DNA of 8,454 nucleotides, from sequence record NC_001954.1; one strand, 5' to 3'. The notes below the pieces were generated by a model, which was not told where the DNA came from, ran no database searches, and saw only the letters and a program-made list of their open reading frames with translations. The position numbers and the translations under genes are program-made. This DNA comes from Escherichia phage If1. Positions 776 to 8,432 of this stretch are shown in pieces; position 1 is the stretch's first letter, and each line of letters begins with the position of its first letter.

Positions 776-2158
776 ATGAAGAAAATAATTATTGCTTTAT
801 TTTTTGCTCCTTTCTTTACCCATGCAACTACAGACGCTGAATGTTTAAGTAAACCCGCATTTGATGGCACATTAAGTAATGTCTGGAAAGAAGGAGACTC
901 ACGTTATGCAAATTTTGAAAACTGCATTTACGAACTTTCGGGTATTGGTATCGGTTATGATAATGATACTTCGTGTAATGGGCACTGGACGCCTGTTCGT
1001 GCTGCTGATGGCTCTGGCAATGGTGGTGATGATAATTCATCTGGCGGGGGTAGTAATGGAGACTCAGGAAACAATTCTACGCCAGATACAGTAACACCCG
1101 GGCAGACTGTGAATTTACCGTCTGACTTATCTACTCTGAGCATTCCTGCTAATGTGGTTAAATCTGACTCAATAGGTTCTCAGTTTTCGCTTTATACAAA
1201 TGCCAGTTGCACAATGTGTTCAGGGTATTATCTGTCTAACAATGCTGATTCAATTGCCATTGCTAACATTACGGAAACGGTAAAGGCTGATTATAACCAG
1301 CCTGATATGTGGTTTGAGCAAACCGACAGTGACGGCAATCATGTTAAAATACTACAGAACAGTTATAAGGCTGTTTCTTATAATGTGGAATCAAAACAAT
1401 CTGACGTGAATAACCCGACATACATTAACTATTCTTATTCCGTTAATGTAAAACAAGTTTCCTATGACACATCAAATGTCTGCATAATGAACTGGGAAAC
1501 TTTTCAGAATAAGTGTGATGCCTCACGTGCTGTTTTGATAACTGATACGGTTACGCCATCTTATTCCAGAAATATAACGATACAGTCGAATATTAATTAT
1601 CAGGGTAGCAACGGGTCAGGCGGGTCAGGCGGGTCAGGCGGGTCAGGCAATGATGGTGGCGGAACCGGGAATAATGGCAACGGAACAGGTGATTTTGATT
1701 ACGTCAAAATGGCAAACGCCAATAAAGATGCACTGACTGAATCATTTGACTTGTCAGCTTTGCAGGCCGATACCGGGGCATCTCTTGATGGTTCTGTACA
1801 GGGAACACTGGATTCTTTAAGCGGGTTTTCCGACAGCATAGGTGGACTTGTTGGCAACGGCTCTGCAATTTCTGGTGAGTTTGCAGGTTCATCAGCTGCT
1901 ATGAATGCAATTGGTGAGGGTGACAAATCGCCTCTGCTGGACTCGCTCTCATTTCTGAAAGACGGATTATTTCCTGCCTTACCTGAATTTAAACAATGTA
2001 CACCATTTGTATTTGCTCCCGGCAAAGAGTACGAATTTATTATTGAGTGCAAATACATTGATATGTTTAAAGGGATTTTTGCTTTCATATTATATTTCTG
2101 GACATTCGTTACTGTTTACGATTCTTTTTCTGGAATATTACGTAAGGGAAGGGGATAA
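776..2158 (+). CDS. III: Gene III minor coat / adsorption protein
   Basis: 460 aa with N-terminal signal peptide. N1-like segment (AECLSKP...[16 protein letters not shown]) resembles the M13 g3p N1 domain. Two Gly/Ser-rich linkers. C-terminal domain ([18 protein letters not shown]...[44 protein letters not shown]) is collinear with the M13 g3p C-terminal anchor. Confidence 0.95.
1613..1648 (+). repeat. Perfect 4x tandem 9-bp repeat (GGGTCAGGC) encoding the (GSG)n linker within gene III
   Basis: Units at 1613-1621, 1622-1630, 1631-1639 and 1640-1648, read directly from the sequence. Confidence 0.9.
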
Positions 2159-3563: not shown

Positions 3564-4833
3564 TTTGCTTTGTGTATTGTCATTTCAGAGCTTTGCTATC
3601 CCTGTTGAACTGAATAATGCGCCAGTAAGGGAGTTTGTTTCATGGTATTCAAAAACAACCGGAAAGCCTGTGATTATTTCACCAGACGTAAAAGGGGAAA
3701 TTACGGTTTACTCAGCGGATGTCACCAAAGATGAACTGCCTCAGTTTTTTACTTCGGTTCTCCGGGCGAACGGTTTTGACCTCAGTCCGGGTAATCCTGC
3801 TGTGGTTCAAAAATTTAACCGTAATACGTATGAATATTCCGATTCTTTCTCAGAGCCGGTTCCGGCATCTTCTTATGATGGTGATGTTCCTCCTCCAACT
3901 GGAGACTTTTTCACTAAACCTGAGATACGTGCCAATTTGATTACTCAGACGTATCCGGTCAATAACGTCAGAGCAAAGGATCTCGCACCTGTTATTGATA
4001 TATTCCTGAAGGGGGAAAATATTGCTGGTACTAAAGTTTATCCTTTGATGGGGCGAATATTCTTGCTTGTAACGGCATCAGCATCACAACACAAAGAACT
4101 TGCAGCATTTTTTCCTTCTGTTGATGTGCCAAGAACTCAGGTTCTTGTTGAATCAGTCATTTTTGAAACAACGGCTTCCGATGGTTTTGATTTTTCATTT
4201 GCTGCGGGGGATCCTTCCGGCAGTCCGGTTGCGGGAGGGATCAATACTGACCGTCTCACGTCTGTTTTATCCAGCACTGGCGGTTCCTTTGGTATTTTTA
4301 ACGGGAACATTCTGGGGCTTAGCCTGAAAGCGCTTGAAACATCGAGTAAATCAACGCTTTTATCAATGCCACGCATTCTGACGATGTCAGGTCAACCAGG
4401 AACATTTACAGCAGGGCAAAATGTTCCTTTTGTGACGGGGCGGGTTACGGGAGAAGCTGCAAATGTTAACAATCCATTCCAGACGATCGAACGTCATGAT
4501 GTGGGGATCTCACTGAAGGTTGTTCCGGTCGTGACACCCGGAGGATTGTTAATCATGGATGTTTCGACAAATGCGGATAGTATTTCTGATTCGCAAACGG
4601 CTTCTGACATCATCACAAATACACGCTCAATTTCGACAACCGTTCAGCTAAAATCAGGCCAGACAGTTCTGCTTGGCGGGATGGTAGATAACAGGGAAAG
4701 CGACAGTGATTCATCTGTACCGTGGGTATCAAAAATTCCCTTAATTGGTGCGCTTTTCACGTCCAAAAGCTCAAATGCCAACAAGCGCACGCTGTACATT
4801 CTCATTCGCGCCCGCGTCGTTAACCTGCTTTAA
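3544..4833 (+). CDS. IV: Gene IV secretin (virion export channel)
   Basis: 429 aa from ATG 3544 (MKKLLASLLCVLSFQSFA signal peptide), with AAGGA at 3530-3534 upstream. The ORF track opens at 3535 (432 aa). Strong collinearity with M13 pIV, including the secretin C-domain (VPFVTGRVTGEAANVNNPFQTIERHDVGISLKV...SKIPLIGALF). Confidence 0.95.
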   Translation: MKKLLASLLCVLSFQSFAIPVELNNAPVREFVSWYSKTTGKPVIISPDVKGEITVYSADVTKDELPQFFTSVLRANGFDLSPGNPAVVQKFNRNTYEYSDSFSEPVPASSYDGDVPPPTGDFFTKPEIRANLITQTYPVNNVRAKDLAPVIDIFLKGENIAGTKVYPLMGRIFLLVTASASQHKELAAFFPSVDVPRTQVLVESVIFETTASDGFDFSFAAGDPSGSPVAGGINTDRLTSVLSSTGGSFGIFNGNILGLSLKALETSSKSTLLSMPRILTMSGQPGTFTAGQNVPFVTGRVTGEAANVNNPFQTIERHDVGISLKVVPVVTPGGLLIMDVSTNADSISDSQTASDIITNTRSISTTVQLKSGQTVLLGGMVDNRESDSDSSVPWVSKIPLIGALFTSKSSNANKRTLYILIRARVVNLL

Positions 4834-4947: not shown

Positions 4948-5060
4948 ATACAGTAAGACTCACATCATCATAAATACAAAGCGAGACGGGTATCGTAAGA
5001 GTTGCCATGTAGCATTTCCTTTGTGCTGTTGAATTTGTGGGTGCATTTGCACGCGAAGCG

Positions 5061-5085
5061 GTTCGGGGTTCTGTGACACCCGAAC
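5061..5085 (+). other. Stem-loop (7-bp stem, 11-nt loop) in the intergenic region
   Basis: GTTCGGG(5061-5067)...CCCGAAC(5079-5085), read directly from the sequence. Confidence 0.35.
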
Positions 5086-5088
5086 TTT

Positions 5089-5112
5089 ACCGTGGTTTCC
5101 CACGGTATTTTT
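5089..5112 (+). terminator. Plus-strand rho-independent terminator candidate
   Basis: ACCGTGG(5089-5095)-TTTC-CCACGGT(5100-5106) followed by A then T5 (5108-5112). On the minus strand the hairpin is not followed by a T-run, so it is directional (+). It lies immediately before the 3' end of the minus-strand ORF at 5119. Confidence 0.55.
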
Positions 5113-5118
5113 CTAATC

Positions 5119-5310
5119 TTACTCGCTGGACTTGGTTGTGTGAATCAGATCCTTTTCTGTATCTTTTGCATAATTATCAATCAGATGATTAACGATATCA
5201 GTCCAAGTGATCGCACGTCCAGCGGTATGACTGGCATCGATCGCCAGCCGTTCGAGTTTTAGCTTTCGTTCAGCCACGATAGCCATAGTTGTTCGTTTTG
5301 GAGTTGCCAT
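5119..5310 (-). CDS. Small ribbon-helix-helix-like DNA-binding protein (putative regulator; function unknown)
   Basis: 63 aa from ATG (reverse complement of 5308-5310): MATPKRTTMAIVAERKLKLERLAIDASHTAGRAITWTDIVNHLIDNYAKDTEKDLIHTTKSSE. Short N-terminal beta-strand-like segment (RTTMAIV) followed by two predicted helices, as in the CopG/Arc/MetJ pattern. GGAAG lies 5 nt upstream of the ATG. The ORF track starts at an upstream TTG (5322). The only clearly antisense gene relative to the phage operons. Confidence 0.45.
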   Translation of the reverse strand: MATPKRTTMAIVAERKLKLERLAIDASHTAGRAITWTDIVNHLIDNYAKDTEKDLIHTTKSSE

Positions 5311-5329
5311 CTTAACTTCCAAAGGGTAC

Positions 5330-5379
5330 TCCCGCCGACATAAGGCGGGAGGGGAATTTGGACGGGCTTGAAAAGCCCG
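5330..5379 (+). repeat. Left-end subterminal hairpins of the IS (candidate TnpA recognition structures)
   Basis: Hairpin 1: TCCCGCC(5330-5336)-GACATAA-GGCGGGA(5344-5350). Hairpin 2: CGGGCTT(5363-5369)-GAA-AAGCCCG(5373-5379). They lie just downstream of the tnpA stop (5388-5390 on the minus strand) and are separated by a G-rich motif GGGAGGGGAA. Confidence 0.5.
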
Positions 5380-5387
5380 AAGGGTGA

Positions 5388-5768
5388 TCAGCCACGCTGA
5401 TGTTGAATGTATTGCCTAACAACTTCCAGCGGCGCACCTCCGCAGGAGCCAGCAAAGTATGACCTAGACCAGAGCACGGCTTTTCCGTATGCCCCCCGCA
5501 AATCAAGAAATTCGTTTCGCAGACGGCGGGATGTCACTGCTTTCAGTGAGTTAACCAGTACCGAAAGCTGCACTGTTGGTGGGTATTCGATCAGCATGTG
5601 GACATCATCGTACGTCTCCGTTACTTTCTTTAAGTTCCTCGCCCCAAAATCACGGCAGCACTTCTGCCTGCATACTGATGAAATGGCTGCACAGTGTAAC
5701 TCTCCCAGTATCTTTCGACGGTATTTTGTTACAAAGACGAAGATGAACATGCAAAAGGAAGGCAGCAT
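5388..5768 (-). CDS. tnpA: IS200/IS605-family Y1 (HuH) transposase TnpA
   Basis: 126 aa from ATG (reverse complement of 5766-5768); the track ORF opens at TTG 5831. Core motifs present: ...FVTKYRRK..., ...DDVHMLIEYPP... (HuH-region) and ...LWSRSYFAGSCGGAPLEVVRQYIQHQ (catalytic Tyr region). The first His of the HuH motif reads as Asp (D-V-H). Confidence 0.85.
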   Translation of the reverse strand: MLPSFCMFIFVFVTKYRRKILGELHCAAISSVCRQKCCRDFGARNLKKVTETYDDVHMLIEYPPTVQLSVLVNSLKAVTSRRLRNEFLDLRGAYGKAVLWSRSYFAGSCGGAPLEVVRQYIQHQRG

Positions 5769-5852
5769 GTCTTGAACGATTGATTTTATATTTTTGCATT
5801 GAGGTTGGCCGTAAAAGCAGTAATATTGCAAGAAAATCTAGCTACACACTGA

Positions 5853-6143
5853 ATGATGATGCTAATCCTGAAAGCCTACAAATTCAGACTGGAACCAACG
5901 CCTGAACAGTCGCAGCGTTTGCGGCAGTTATGCGGTTGCGCCCGTTTTGTCTGGAATTTAGGTCTTGCGGAGACAAAGCGCATACTTGACTCAGGCGAAA
6001 AGTTACCTTCGGCTTTCGAGTTGAACCGGAGTGATTACAGTGTGGAAAAAAATGCCGGAATACATCTTCTTACAGGATGCCTATACCGACAATCTGCAAC
6101 AAAAGCTGAAAGACCTGCATACCGCATGGAAACGTTGTTTTGA
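5853..6143 (+). CDS. tnpB: tnpB N-terminal fragment (frame 0), out of frame with the main tnpB body
   Basis: Starts ATGATGATG. MMMLILKAYKFRLEPTPEQSQRLRQLCGCARFVWNLGLAE matches the canonical TnpB/OrfB N-terminal signature (KAYKFRLxPTxEQ...GCARFVWN). Only about the first 60 aa look genuine; the rest of the frame runs to a stop at 6141-6143. Confidence 0.7.
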   Translation: MMMLILKAYKFRLEPTPEQSQRLRQLCGCARFVWNLGLAETKRILDSGEKLPSAFELNRSDYSVEKNAGIHLLTGCLYRQSATKAERPAYRMETLF

Positions 6144-7086
6144 TAAAAAGCTCGCAGCTAAGGCTCCGGTATGGAAACGAAAAAATGAGGGCAGAGACTC
6201 AATCCGTTTTGTGAACTTTGAGAAATATTGCTGCCTTGAAAATCGCAGAGTGAAGCTACCGTCAGGTCTTGGGTGGGTAAAATTCCGGCAATCTCAACGT
6301 GTGAACGGTAAAATCAAAAATGCGACAATCAGTCAGTTAGCGGGACAGTGGTATATCTCGTTTCAGGTTGAAATTGAAACGGCAGAACCAAATCACACAA
6401 GCACAACGATAGTCGGTCTGGATGCTGGCGTGGCTAAACTCGCCACGCTGTCAGATGGCACAGTCTTTGAACCTGTAAACAGTTTTCAGAAAAACCAGAA
6501 GAAGCTGGCGAGACTTCAGCGACAGTTAAGCCGCAAGGTCAAATTCAGCAACAACTGGCAGAAGCAGAAACGCAAAATACAGTGTCTGCATTCCCGTATC
6601 GCAAATATCCGCAGAGACTACCTTCATAAAGTCACAACGACCGTCAGCAAAAACCACGCAATGATAGTCATTGAGGATTTGAAGGTCAGCAACATGTCAA
6701 AGTCAGCAGCGGGTACGGTCAGCCAGCCGGGGCGCAATGTCCGGGCAAAATCAGGTTTAAACCGTTCGATACTGGATCAGGGCTGGTATGAAATGCGCCG
6801 CCAGCTTGAGTACAAACAGCTCTGGCGTGGAGGTCAGGTGCTTGCTGTTCCGCCAGCGTACACAAGCCAGCGTTGCGCGTGCTGTGGTCATACAGCGAAA
6901 GAAAACCGCCTGTCACAAAGTCAATTCAGATGCCAGGTATGTGGATATACAGCGAACGCCGATGTAAATGGCGCTCGTAACATTTTAGCGGCGGGGCACG
7001 CCGTACTTGCCTGTGGAGGGACGATGCAGTCAGACCGCCCGTTGAAGCAGGAACCAGACGCTGAGCAATCAGCCGTCACCCACTAA
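6031..7086 (+). CDS. tnpB: tnpB main body: RuvC-like, zinc-finger RNA-guided endonuclease (IS605 OrfB / OMEGA TnpB)
   Basis: 351 aa in frame +1 relative to the N-terminal fragment. RuvC-I (IVGLDAGV), RuvC-II (MIVIEDLKV), zinc finger (CACCGH...CQVCGY) and RuvC-III ([10 protein letters not shown]) all present. Frame opens just after TGA at 6022-6024, with first start-like codon GTG at 6031. Combined with the N-terminal fragment the protein would be about 410 aa. Confidence 0.85.
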
Positions 7087-7091
7087 TGGGA

Positions 7092-7132
7092 ATCCCCCTC
7101 CTGAGTCACGAAGTGCGAAGGTGGGGGAGGAT
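7092..7132 (+). repeat. Right-end imperfect palindrome / G-rich motif of the IS (candidate RE structure and omega-RNA scaffold 3' region)
   Basis: ATCCCCCTCC (7092-7101) ... GGTGGGGGAGGAT (7120-7132), 6-13 nt after the tnpB stop. It can form an imperfect stem with bulges. It resembles the left-end motif GGCGGGAGGGGAA at 5344-5356. Confidence 0.4.
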
Positions 7133-7140
7133 GTCAATCC

Positions 7141-7315: not shown

Positions 7316-7537
7316 ATGTTTTTTGACTGGCTGACTATTGAACAGGATTTTGGCTTTCAGCTACCGATTTTGAGTGATGTTGCCTATCAGCGCATCCACC
7401 TCGAAAGCGGGGAAGCGTCAGCTCTGAGTCAGCCAACTTTTCAGCACAAAGGATCTTTTTGTGATGGTTGTTTCGATCTCTATCCGAGGCTCATTGCTGA
7501 AAGTCTCTGGAAATCCTTCCCGGTGGGGGCGTCTTGA
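7316..7537 (+). CDS. II: Gene II replication initiator, N-terminal segment (frame 2), ahead of an apparent frameshift
   Basis: MFFDWLTIEQDFGFQLPILSDVAYQRIHLESGEASALSQPTFQHKGSF... Start and N-terminal pattern resemble M13 pII (MIDMLVLRLPF...). The genuine part probably ends at F48 (7457-7459); the track ORF continues out of frame to 7537. Confidence 0.7.
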   Translation: MFFDWLTIEQDFGFQLPILSDVAYQRIHLESGEASALSQPTFQHKGSFCDGCFDLYPRLIAESLWKSFPVGAS

Positions 7538-8432
7538 TAATTTATTTGGCCTTCCAACTTTGGATTCCTGTGTATCGGTTTTCAATACGATCCTTGCTGA
7601 AATAGGTTTACCTCAGTTTACGAAATGTAAGAGGCTTATGCCCGGCCAGGCAAAAGAGAATGAGAAAGCACCTCTTGTTGCTGACGGTGCAATTATTAAA
7701 GAAGTACATATCACCTCGAACAGGGCGGCAGGTAAGGGGAATGAAGATGACTATATTTCAGGTTTATCTACGCAACCCTACAGGAACAGCGTTCCACGGC
7801 TACACTCCAATGGAAAATCCGTTGACTGGCTGTCTAAAAAAGGCAATGTAAACCTCATATATCCAACGGTTTACAATAAAGCTCATGAAATGGAACTCCA
7901 TTCTTTGACAAAGATAAAGAATCGTTTTTCCGAACAATCTCGGGAATACAATTACCTACTCGATATTATATCTTTCTGCAAAGAGAATGGGGTCGTAAGG
8001 TTTGAGCAAAAGCTGAAATCCAGATTTTTGCAAAAGAATGCGCTCAATTACTGGGGGCTTTCTGATTATTCCATTTTAAATAAGTTACATTCTGATTTTC
8101 TTGAACTTGATAAAAAGTTATCGGTGAATGCTATGGACTTTGAAACTATCAGTGATCATCTTGTAAGTAGTGGGGTTGTTGAAACCACCCGTGCAGCAAA
8201 TACTACCGCAATGTATGCAATACAGTGGTTTCACGGTCATGTATTTGACTTCAACAAAAAACAGGTTCAGACACATCGGGCGCGGTTACGAAAAATTGGT
8301 ATCGACATTGCGCAGAAATGCAATGTTTCTAAATTCTCTCCTGTGATTGTGAAACAAACACGGGAAATTAAGGTGCAGGAGTGCGTTGCACCATCATGGT
8401 ATGTACGTCCGTCACATTTACGCGTTGCATAG
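7461..8432 (+). CDS. II: Gene II replication initiator (rolling-circle nickase), main body (frame 0)
   Basis: 323 aa. SISIRGSLLKVSGNPSRWG aligns with M13 pII CVEIKASPAKVLQGHNVFG, and RFEQKLKSRFLQKNAL with M13 RFEARIKTRYLKSF. Stop TAG at 8430-8432. Frame opens after TGA at 7425-7427. Confidence 0.9.
   Translation: MMVVSISIRGSLLKVSGNPSRWGRLDNLFGLPTLDSCVSVFNTILAEIGLPQFTKCKRLMPGQAKENEKAPLVADGAIIKEVHITSNRAAGKGNEDDYISGLSTQPYRNSVPRLHSNGKSVDWLSKKGNVNLIYPTVYNKAHEMELHSLTKIKNRFSEQSREYNYLLDIISFCKENGVVRFEQKLKSRFLQKNALNYWGLSDYSILNKLHSDFLELDKKLSVNAMDFETISDHLVSSGVVETTRAANTTAMYAIQWFHGHVFDFNKKQVQTHRARLRKIGIDIAQKCNVSKFSPVIVKQTREIKVQECVAPSWYVRPSHLRVA
8133..8432 (+). CDS. X: Gene X product (in-frame internal start within gene II)
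   Basis: In-frame ATG at 8133 (MDFETISDHL...) preceded by GGTGA at 8123-8127. 99 aa. Same relative position and size as M13 pX (111 aa). Confidence 0.5.
   Translation: MDFETISDHLVSSGVVETTRAANTTAMYAIQWFHGHVFDFNKKQVQTHRARLRKIGIDIAQKCNVSKFSPVIVKQTREIKVQECVAPSWYVRPSHLRVA

Follow-up and report, generated by a model that had tools for sequence, protein, structure and literature searches.

The D-V-H sequence found at the metal-binding HuH motif of the TnpA transposase in the genome record of the filamentous phage If1 is most probably not a real feature of the enzyme. With good confidence, it can be attributed to a base-calling artefact in the record, which is its most likely origin. The native TnpA is an ordinary 134-aa Y1 HUH transposase with His63-Val-His65, Tyr128 and Gln132, and D-V-H would represent one miscalled base among nine spurious insertions within a low-quality stretch of 426 nt, which cause seven frameshifts in tnpA and one in tnpB. 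The differences from natural copies of the element, their clustering and other errors in the same record were observed directly, and the ten differences most likely arose in sequencing and not in the phage.

The window analyzed here is the whole 8,454-nt stretch of DNA. Outside the insertion element, it encodes a filamentous-phage gene set (no Pfam family is assigned to the ORF at 1-291), and an 8454-nt isolate entry in IMG/VR has the same sequence. The two published g3p primers for If1 (NC_001954) have perfect matches in the window (811-837 and 1529-1555), which identifies it as the reference genome of If1, an I-pilus-specific filamentous phage (Inoviridae), NC_001954. The record is presumably an early-1990s GenBank deposit.

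The insertion element and its ends

The features of the element are as follows.

5311-7137, plus strand: IS200/IS605-family insertion element, 1827 nt as written and 1818 nt in its natural form, delimited by the empty site and by alignment to an IncI1 plasmid
5306-5310, plus strand: target site GCCAT (conserved core CCAT), phage-derived and directly 5' of the left end of the element
5329-5351, plus strand: left-end subterminal hairpin (CTCCCGCC / GGCGGGAG), DNA fold z = -5.2, 18 nt inside the left cleavage site
7093-7128, plus strand: right-end imperfect palindrome (DNA fold), with the element end ...GGATGTCAA 9 nt further on
5388-5799, minus strand: tnpA as written, with start ATG at 5799-5797 and stop TGA at 5390-5388, its frame broken by seven extra bases
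5853-7086, plus strand: tnpB (RNA-guided endonuclease family), which as written falls into two ORFs, 5853-6143 and 6031-7086

Regarding the borders, the empty site in a relative of If1 (locus L005) reads GGAGTTGCCAT and TCCACACC on the two sides of the insertion point, which fixes the element at 5311-7137 and indicates that no target duplication occurred on insertion. In each of four insertion contexts, the left end directly follows CCAT, and all right ends read ...GTCAA (three contexts). The element has neither terminal inverted repeats nor a target duplication, carries hairpins at both ends, the left one being identical in natural copies, and is inserted 3' of CCAT. These end features are those of the “peel and paste” single-strand transposition of the IS200/IS605 family. 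By homology to the TnpA of IS608, native TnpA would excise and insert the element as ssDNA 3' of CCAT. In this analogy, a TnpA dimer would cut the phage plus strand, the top strand of the element, directly behind CCAT at the left end and GTCAA at the right, and the cleavage chemistry would be carried out by Tyr128 together with a metal held by His63, His65 and Gln132.

The subterminal hairpins, whose distance from the cleavage site is approximately 18 nt on the left and 9 nt on the right, are a further likeness to IS608, the right end of which terminates in TCAA, as in the window element. The target of IS608 is TTAC, in contrast to CCAT here, and tnpA and tnpB, which run leftward and rightward, respectively, are divergent as in IS605, whereas those of IS608 are co-directional. 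The TnpA proteins named ISEc41 and ISSen6 by NCBI (P0048 and P0043) belong to the same TnpA subgroup, with approximately 75% identity and the canonical sequence D-H-V/I-H-M-L; they are from different elements, and the window element carries no ISfinder-style name in the annotations found.

The product of tnpB is recognized by Pfam in the ORFs as written through HTH_OrfB_IS605, OrfB_IS605 (RuvC-like) and Cas12f1-like_TNB (zinc finger). The native 408-aa TnpB (WP_024186316.1) scores 363 bits against the NCBIfam model guided_TnpB NF040570 (cutoff 100). In the window, no intact tnpB ORF is present, and the frameshift recorded in the earlier note was traced to a single extra base at 6031, which splits the ORF. 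An Rfam scan of the whole window gave no family reaching its gathering score, a result that is not counted against a guide RNA at the right end.

The element lies precisely between a Shine-Dalgarno-like GAGGTG and the ATG of a small phage ORF on the minus strand (window 5119-5322, junction 5310/5311), and the target site GCCAT holds this minus-strand ATG (MATPKRTTMAIVAERKLKLERL..., 63 aa, 5122-5310). Therefore, the insertion probably uncouples the small ORF from its own translation and transcription signals. A role of this ORF as a ribbon-helix-helix regulator is unsupported, as it belongs to no Pfam family.

Natural copies of the element and the ten differences

A megablast search with the tnpA region matched 121 E. 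coli records, 100 of which cover at least 80% of the query. The natural copies lie mostly on plasmids, mainly IncI1, and tnpA is annotated as intact in approximately 100 E. coli replicons. The best match is the IncI1 plasmid p51008369SK1_B (NZ_CP029975.1), in which the element is located between trbA and excA and its 405-nt tnpA encodes a continuous 134-aa protein, MQKYKINRSRHAAFLLHVHLVFVTKYRRKILGELHCAAFHQYAAEVCRDFGAELKESNGDVDHVHMLIEYPP...RQYIQHQRG (WP_001175009.1). This native TnpA scores 138.6 bits against NCBIfam NF033573 (cutoff 55). The IncI1 copy encodes ...NGDVDHVHMLIEYPP..., its TnpA reads D-H-V-H-M-L-I-E-Y-P-P at the motif, and CAT at codon 63 is also found in a chromosomal copy (dadA) and in a copy on a different plasmid. 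Removing nine extra bases and reverting one substitution makes the window element identical to the plasmid element over 1818/1818 nt. Ends, hairpins, CCAT target and divergent tnpA/tnpB are common to both; the window copy differs in its nine extra bases, in GAT instead of CAT at codon 63 and in its phage location instead of the trbA-excA interval.

Full-length alignment accordingly gives nine single extra bases and one substitution, and everything else is identical. The extra bases, relative to the natural copies, are listed below.

5739, 5686, 5668, 5659, 5640, 5638 and 5611, minus strand: seven single extra bases in tnpA
5841, minus strand: extra C between tnpA and tnpB
6031, plus strand: extra base (G on the plus strand, C as read on the minus strand) causing the tnpB frameshift

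The substitution, at 5606, is a C to G change on the minus strand and lies 5 nt from an extra base. All ten changes fall inside 426 nt (5606-6031), with none in the other ~1,400 nt of the element, and the chance of such clustering is approximately 4e-6 to 6e-5, depending on how events are counted. The indels are without exception insertions (8/8 events, P = 0.004, or 9/9 when a double site is split), and six of the nine inserted bases have no identical neighbor, that is, they are of the non-slippage type. None of the ten changes occurs in any of 100 full-length E. coli copies, the best identity among them being 96.5% over 5596-5850. In natural mutation spectra, substitutions dominate and indels arise mostly by slippage; the non-natural type of the changes here, nine insertions and one substitution with no deletion, points to errors.

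The reading frames of tnpA

Although the 147-aa ORF at 5831-5388 scores 96.9 bits against the Pfam family Y1_Tnp PF01797 (cutoff 23), the window has no uninterrupted frame of ~134 aa, since the seven extra bases between 5611 and 5739 intervene. In the window tnpA, one frame holds the N-terminal 20 aa and another the C-terminal 73 aa. The true N-terminus, MQKYKINRSRHAAFLLHVHL, begins at the ATG at 5799-5797 in another minus-strand frame and joins VFVTKYRRK only if the extra C at 5739 is removed. The only parts of the 147-aa ORF in the true frame are VFVTKYRRKILGELHCAA, CRDFGA and the segment from D-(H/D)-V-H to the end. Read in this way, the ORF combines three reading frames in a mosaic made by the seven extra bases in tnpA, and tnpA as written could not make an active TnpA. 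The N-terminus FCMFIFVFVTKYRR, which had been called atypical, is indeed odd as read; it is an out-of-frame reading that follows from the mosaic, and the real N-terminus is the one given above. Likewise, the Shine-Dalgarno sequence before tnpA is weak, as had been remarked, but it is equally weak in the intact natural copies and is therefore not a sign of decay.

The HuH motif and the catalytic residues

The minus-strand codons at the motif are GAT (5609-5607), GAT (5606-5604), GTC (5603-5601), CAC (5600-5598) and ATG (5597-5595), followed by L-I-E-Y-P-P. The reported reading of D-D-V-H with a downstream MLIEYPP is therefore correct at the codon level. The residues of interest are as follows.

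5604-5606, minus strand: GAT (Asp) in place of CAT (His63, equivalent to IS608 H64), owing to the G at 5606 (minus strand), the one base substituted in the element
5598-5600, minus strand: CAC, second HuH histidine (His65, equivalent to IS608 H66), unchanged
5409-5411, minus strand: TAC, catalytic Tyr128 (equivalent to IS608 Y127), from the IS608 alignment and homologues
5399-5397, minus strand: CAG, Gln132 (equivalent to IS608 Q131) of the Y---Q signature, from the IS608 alignment and homologues

A phmmer search against solved structures aligned native TnpA with the TnpA of IS608 (ISHp608) from Helicobacter pylori (2a6m, E = 3e-18; also 2vju). The two proteins are of the same Y1 HUH fold family and their active-site residues align, although the alignment is local and the sequences are clearly diverged. 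Native D-H-V-H falls on D63-H64-I65-H66 of IS608, so the second Asp of the window occupies the position of the first HuH histidine, and, counted along the printed alignment, H63, H65, Y128 and Q132 of the native protein fall on H64, H66, Y127 and Q131. Mutation of H64, H66 or Y127 inactivates the IS608 enzyme (PMC3597680), Q131 completes its metal site, and the Y---Q signature with V or I at the variable position of the HuH motif marks subclass 1.1 (PMC6006769). The earlier note was thus right that Asp takes the place of the first metal-ligand His and that its codon is one nucleotide away from CAT, the codon present in all natural copies examined. The window as written lacks the canonical HuH motif (D-V-H) and retains the Y---Q signature, with the catalytic Tyr and a Gln four residues on, whereas the native element has the canonical motif (H-V-H). 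What does not stand is D-V-H as a biological property of TnpA, since the ORF is a frame mosaic and the natural copies carry canonical H-V-H. The deviation from HuH is confined to this record and is probably an artefact.

The homologue alignment proposed in the earlier note points in the same direction. Among 6,382 homologues found, residues were counted in the 120 closest clusters (65-99% identity). The first HuH position is His in 118/120, Tyr in 2/120 and Asp in 0/120 of them, and the second is His in 119/120; the catalytic Tyr is present in 116/120 and the Gln in 115/120. D-x-H is not a variant of this subgroup, and the His pair does not lie elsewhere.

Probable single-base errors elsewhere in the If1 record

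7466-7467, plus strand: extra G in a GG pair of the replication-initiator gene (7316-8432), which splits the gene into ORFs at 7316-7537 (73 aa) and 7461-8432 (323 aa); taken here as a gauge of the quality of the record

Metagenomic sequences were scanned with a pattern allowing one or two Gs at the break in Rep, and three loci from two samples were recovered, all with one G fewer than the window. Rep proteins of distant inoviruses are also continuous across the break (HKGSYCDEVSI...). As If1 is viable, the Rep frameshift cannot be real, and the extra G at 7466-7467 is very probably an error in the reference record. The metagenomic relatives are >99% identical to the If1 backbone and lack the IS. 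Two independent metagenome assemblies, each from a separate sample, share one reading that departs from the window at four places: besides having the extra G at 7466/7, the window lacks one T and has a surplus T 22 nt away in the secretin gene (g4p-like, 4043-4068), and it lacks a C at 5051/2. Only four substitutions separate it from these relatives. A difference between near-identical genomes that consists of about as many single-base indels as substitutions is the signature of base-calling error. The compensating pair (-1/+1) in the secretin gene would garble approximately seven residues, as is typical of a misread stretch.

Base-calling error or decay in the phage

The clustering of the changes, their insertion type, their uniqueness and the other errors of the record together favor base-calling error rather than immobilization of the element by mutation. 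Several points weigh against the artefact. No second, independently sequenced If1 with the IS was found in the viral contigs, E. coli genomes or PLSDB plasmids searched: in viral contigs, exact-pattern searches for the GAT variant and the junction of phage and IS retrieved the window alone, a junction-spanning megablast against complete E. coli genomes and PLSDB plasmids matched the IS part alone, and a search of a phage collection with the whole window found no If1 backbone. In addition, the error density in 5606-6031, approximately one per 43 nt, greatly exceeds the backbone value of approximately one single-base indel per 1.3 kb and has to be accounted for in some special way, for example by a single poor read. 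Laboratory stocks of filamentous phage can gather real mutations in non-essential DNA, and a biological rationale exists for a phage keeping an inactivated ssDNA transposase.

The latter points lead to the principal alternative, in which the lesions are real and If1 carries a decayed, immobilized IS with seven frameshifting insertions plus H63D in tnpA and one frameshift in tnpB; such a copy may be kept because the element would be excised again and again from the ssDNA genome if TnpA were active. The window sequence indeed cannot encode an active TnpA or TnpB, mutation of the equivalent residue H64 inactivates the IS608 enzyme (PMC3597680), the IS is dispensable and free to decay, as wild relatives lack it, and no independent sequence in the E. 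coli genomes and PLSDB searched contradicts the lesions. Nevertheless, one lesion would suffice for inactivation, and ten changes in 426 nt with none in ~1,400 nt do not resemble neutral decay. The ratio of insertions to substitutions (9:1), the lack of deletions and the mostly non-slippage type are unlike natural spectra as generally understood, and the same record contains a frameshift in the essential Rep that is impossible in a viable phage. Real decay is therefore considered unlikely. The suggestion that the element may be immobilized is correct insofar as the sequence as written yields no active TnpA, but the evidence favors base-calling errors over mutation as the cause.

IncI1 is the plasmid type that makes the I pilus, the receptor of If1, and its copy of the IS is 100% identical outside the error-dense stretch; both the transposition strand of the IS and its CCAT target are on the phage plus strand. 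This near-identity, together with the strand and the target, suggests that the IS was recently captured from a plasmid of the host into single-stranded phage DNA. An extension of this idea, in which laboratory If1 took the ssDNA-transposing IS from an IncI1 plasmid encoding its receptor pilus, received it 3' of CCAT in the viral strand and then fixed a copy with dead tnpA (including H63D) and tnpB, is doubtful as a whole. If true, it would provide a natural example in which an IS200/IS605 element became trapped in an ssDNA virus because an active transposase would go on excising it.

The remaining alternatives concern the motif itself. A location of the catalytic His pair elsewhere, for example at the N-terminal H17-V-H19, so that the D-V-H position would not be catalytic, is very improbable. 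The native protein does have this second, nearly invariant H-V-H at 17-19, but the IS608 alignment puts residues 63-65 on H64-I-H66, with Y128 and Q132 on their IS608 counterparts, and it places 17-19 on the first beta-strand (KYHIVW) and not on the metal site (roles from PMC3597680 and PMC6006769); H17-V-H19 was rejected as the metal site on this basis. A natural, catalytically competent D-V-H variant with Asp as metal ligand is effectively excluded: Asp can coordinate divalent metals and the second His, Tyr and Gln are intact in the window, yet Asp is absent from the 120 closest homologue clusters (65-99% identity), all natural copies of the element examined have His, the seven frameshifts upstream leave the motif segment unjoined to a proper N-terminal half, and the eight solved family members retrieved are all of the canonical family, with DHIH in the two different proteins for which an alignment is available.

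Relation to earlier reports and significance

If1 has been described as the only ssDNA phage with an OrfB_IS605 domain, in a protein 99% identical to an E. coli one and probably acquired from the host (PMC4632390). As the sections of that report consulted here show, a host-derived IS605-type gene in If1 is already known; element boundaries, tnpA, frameshifts and record errors are not defined in those sections. A literature search found no paper on errors in the If1 record.

A HUH metal site of the D-x-H type would be of interest to enzymologists, and its disappearance on comparison with natural copies avoids a false lead. Under the base-calling explanation, the If1 reference appears to hold single-base errors in tnpA, tnpB, the replication gene and the secretin gene, and the broken ORFs of the record will spread into protein databases. 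PHAGE_Entero_If1 (NC_001954) was listed as an intact prophage on Salmonella plasmids in a 2026 paper (PMC13063685); the plasmid-derived IS in the If1 record, which forms part of phage reference sets, is a plausible cause of plasmids being called “If1 prophage”.

Other observations on the phage backbone

Both wild relatives of If1 contain approximately 2.6 kb after the secretin gene that is absent in If1 (L006 985-3542; L005 1-1436 plus 8097-9360; corresponding to window ~4931), with ORFs of 122, 159 and 128 aa. A gII pattern occurs twice, approximately 9.2 kb apart (L006 and L007), at ~150-162 kb of the 454-kb contig Ga0209935_1000071, which suggests that these are tandem, possibly integrated, copies of an If1-like phage. 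In the glycine-rich linker of the g3p-like gene (window 1611-1648 and 1947-1952), the window has 36 or 54 nt fewer of GGGTCAGGC-type repeats than the relatives and a 6-nt in-frame extra segment nearby; these differences are probably genuine variation in repeat number. Finally, 50 nt of the window (5061-5110) are 96% identical to a “putative regulator” region of the Alteromonas phage phiAFP1, a nucleotide match that is unexpectedly close across distant hosts; the Rep of phiAFP1 is also approximately 52% identical to that of the window.
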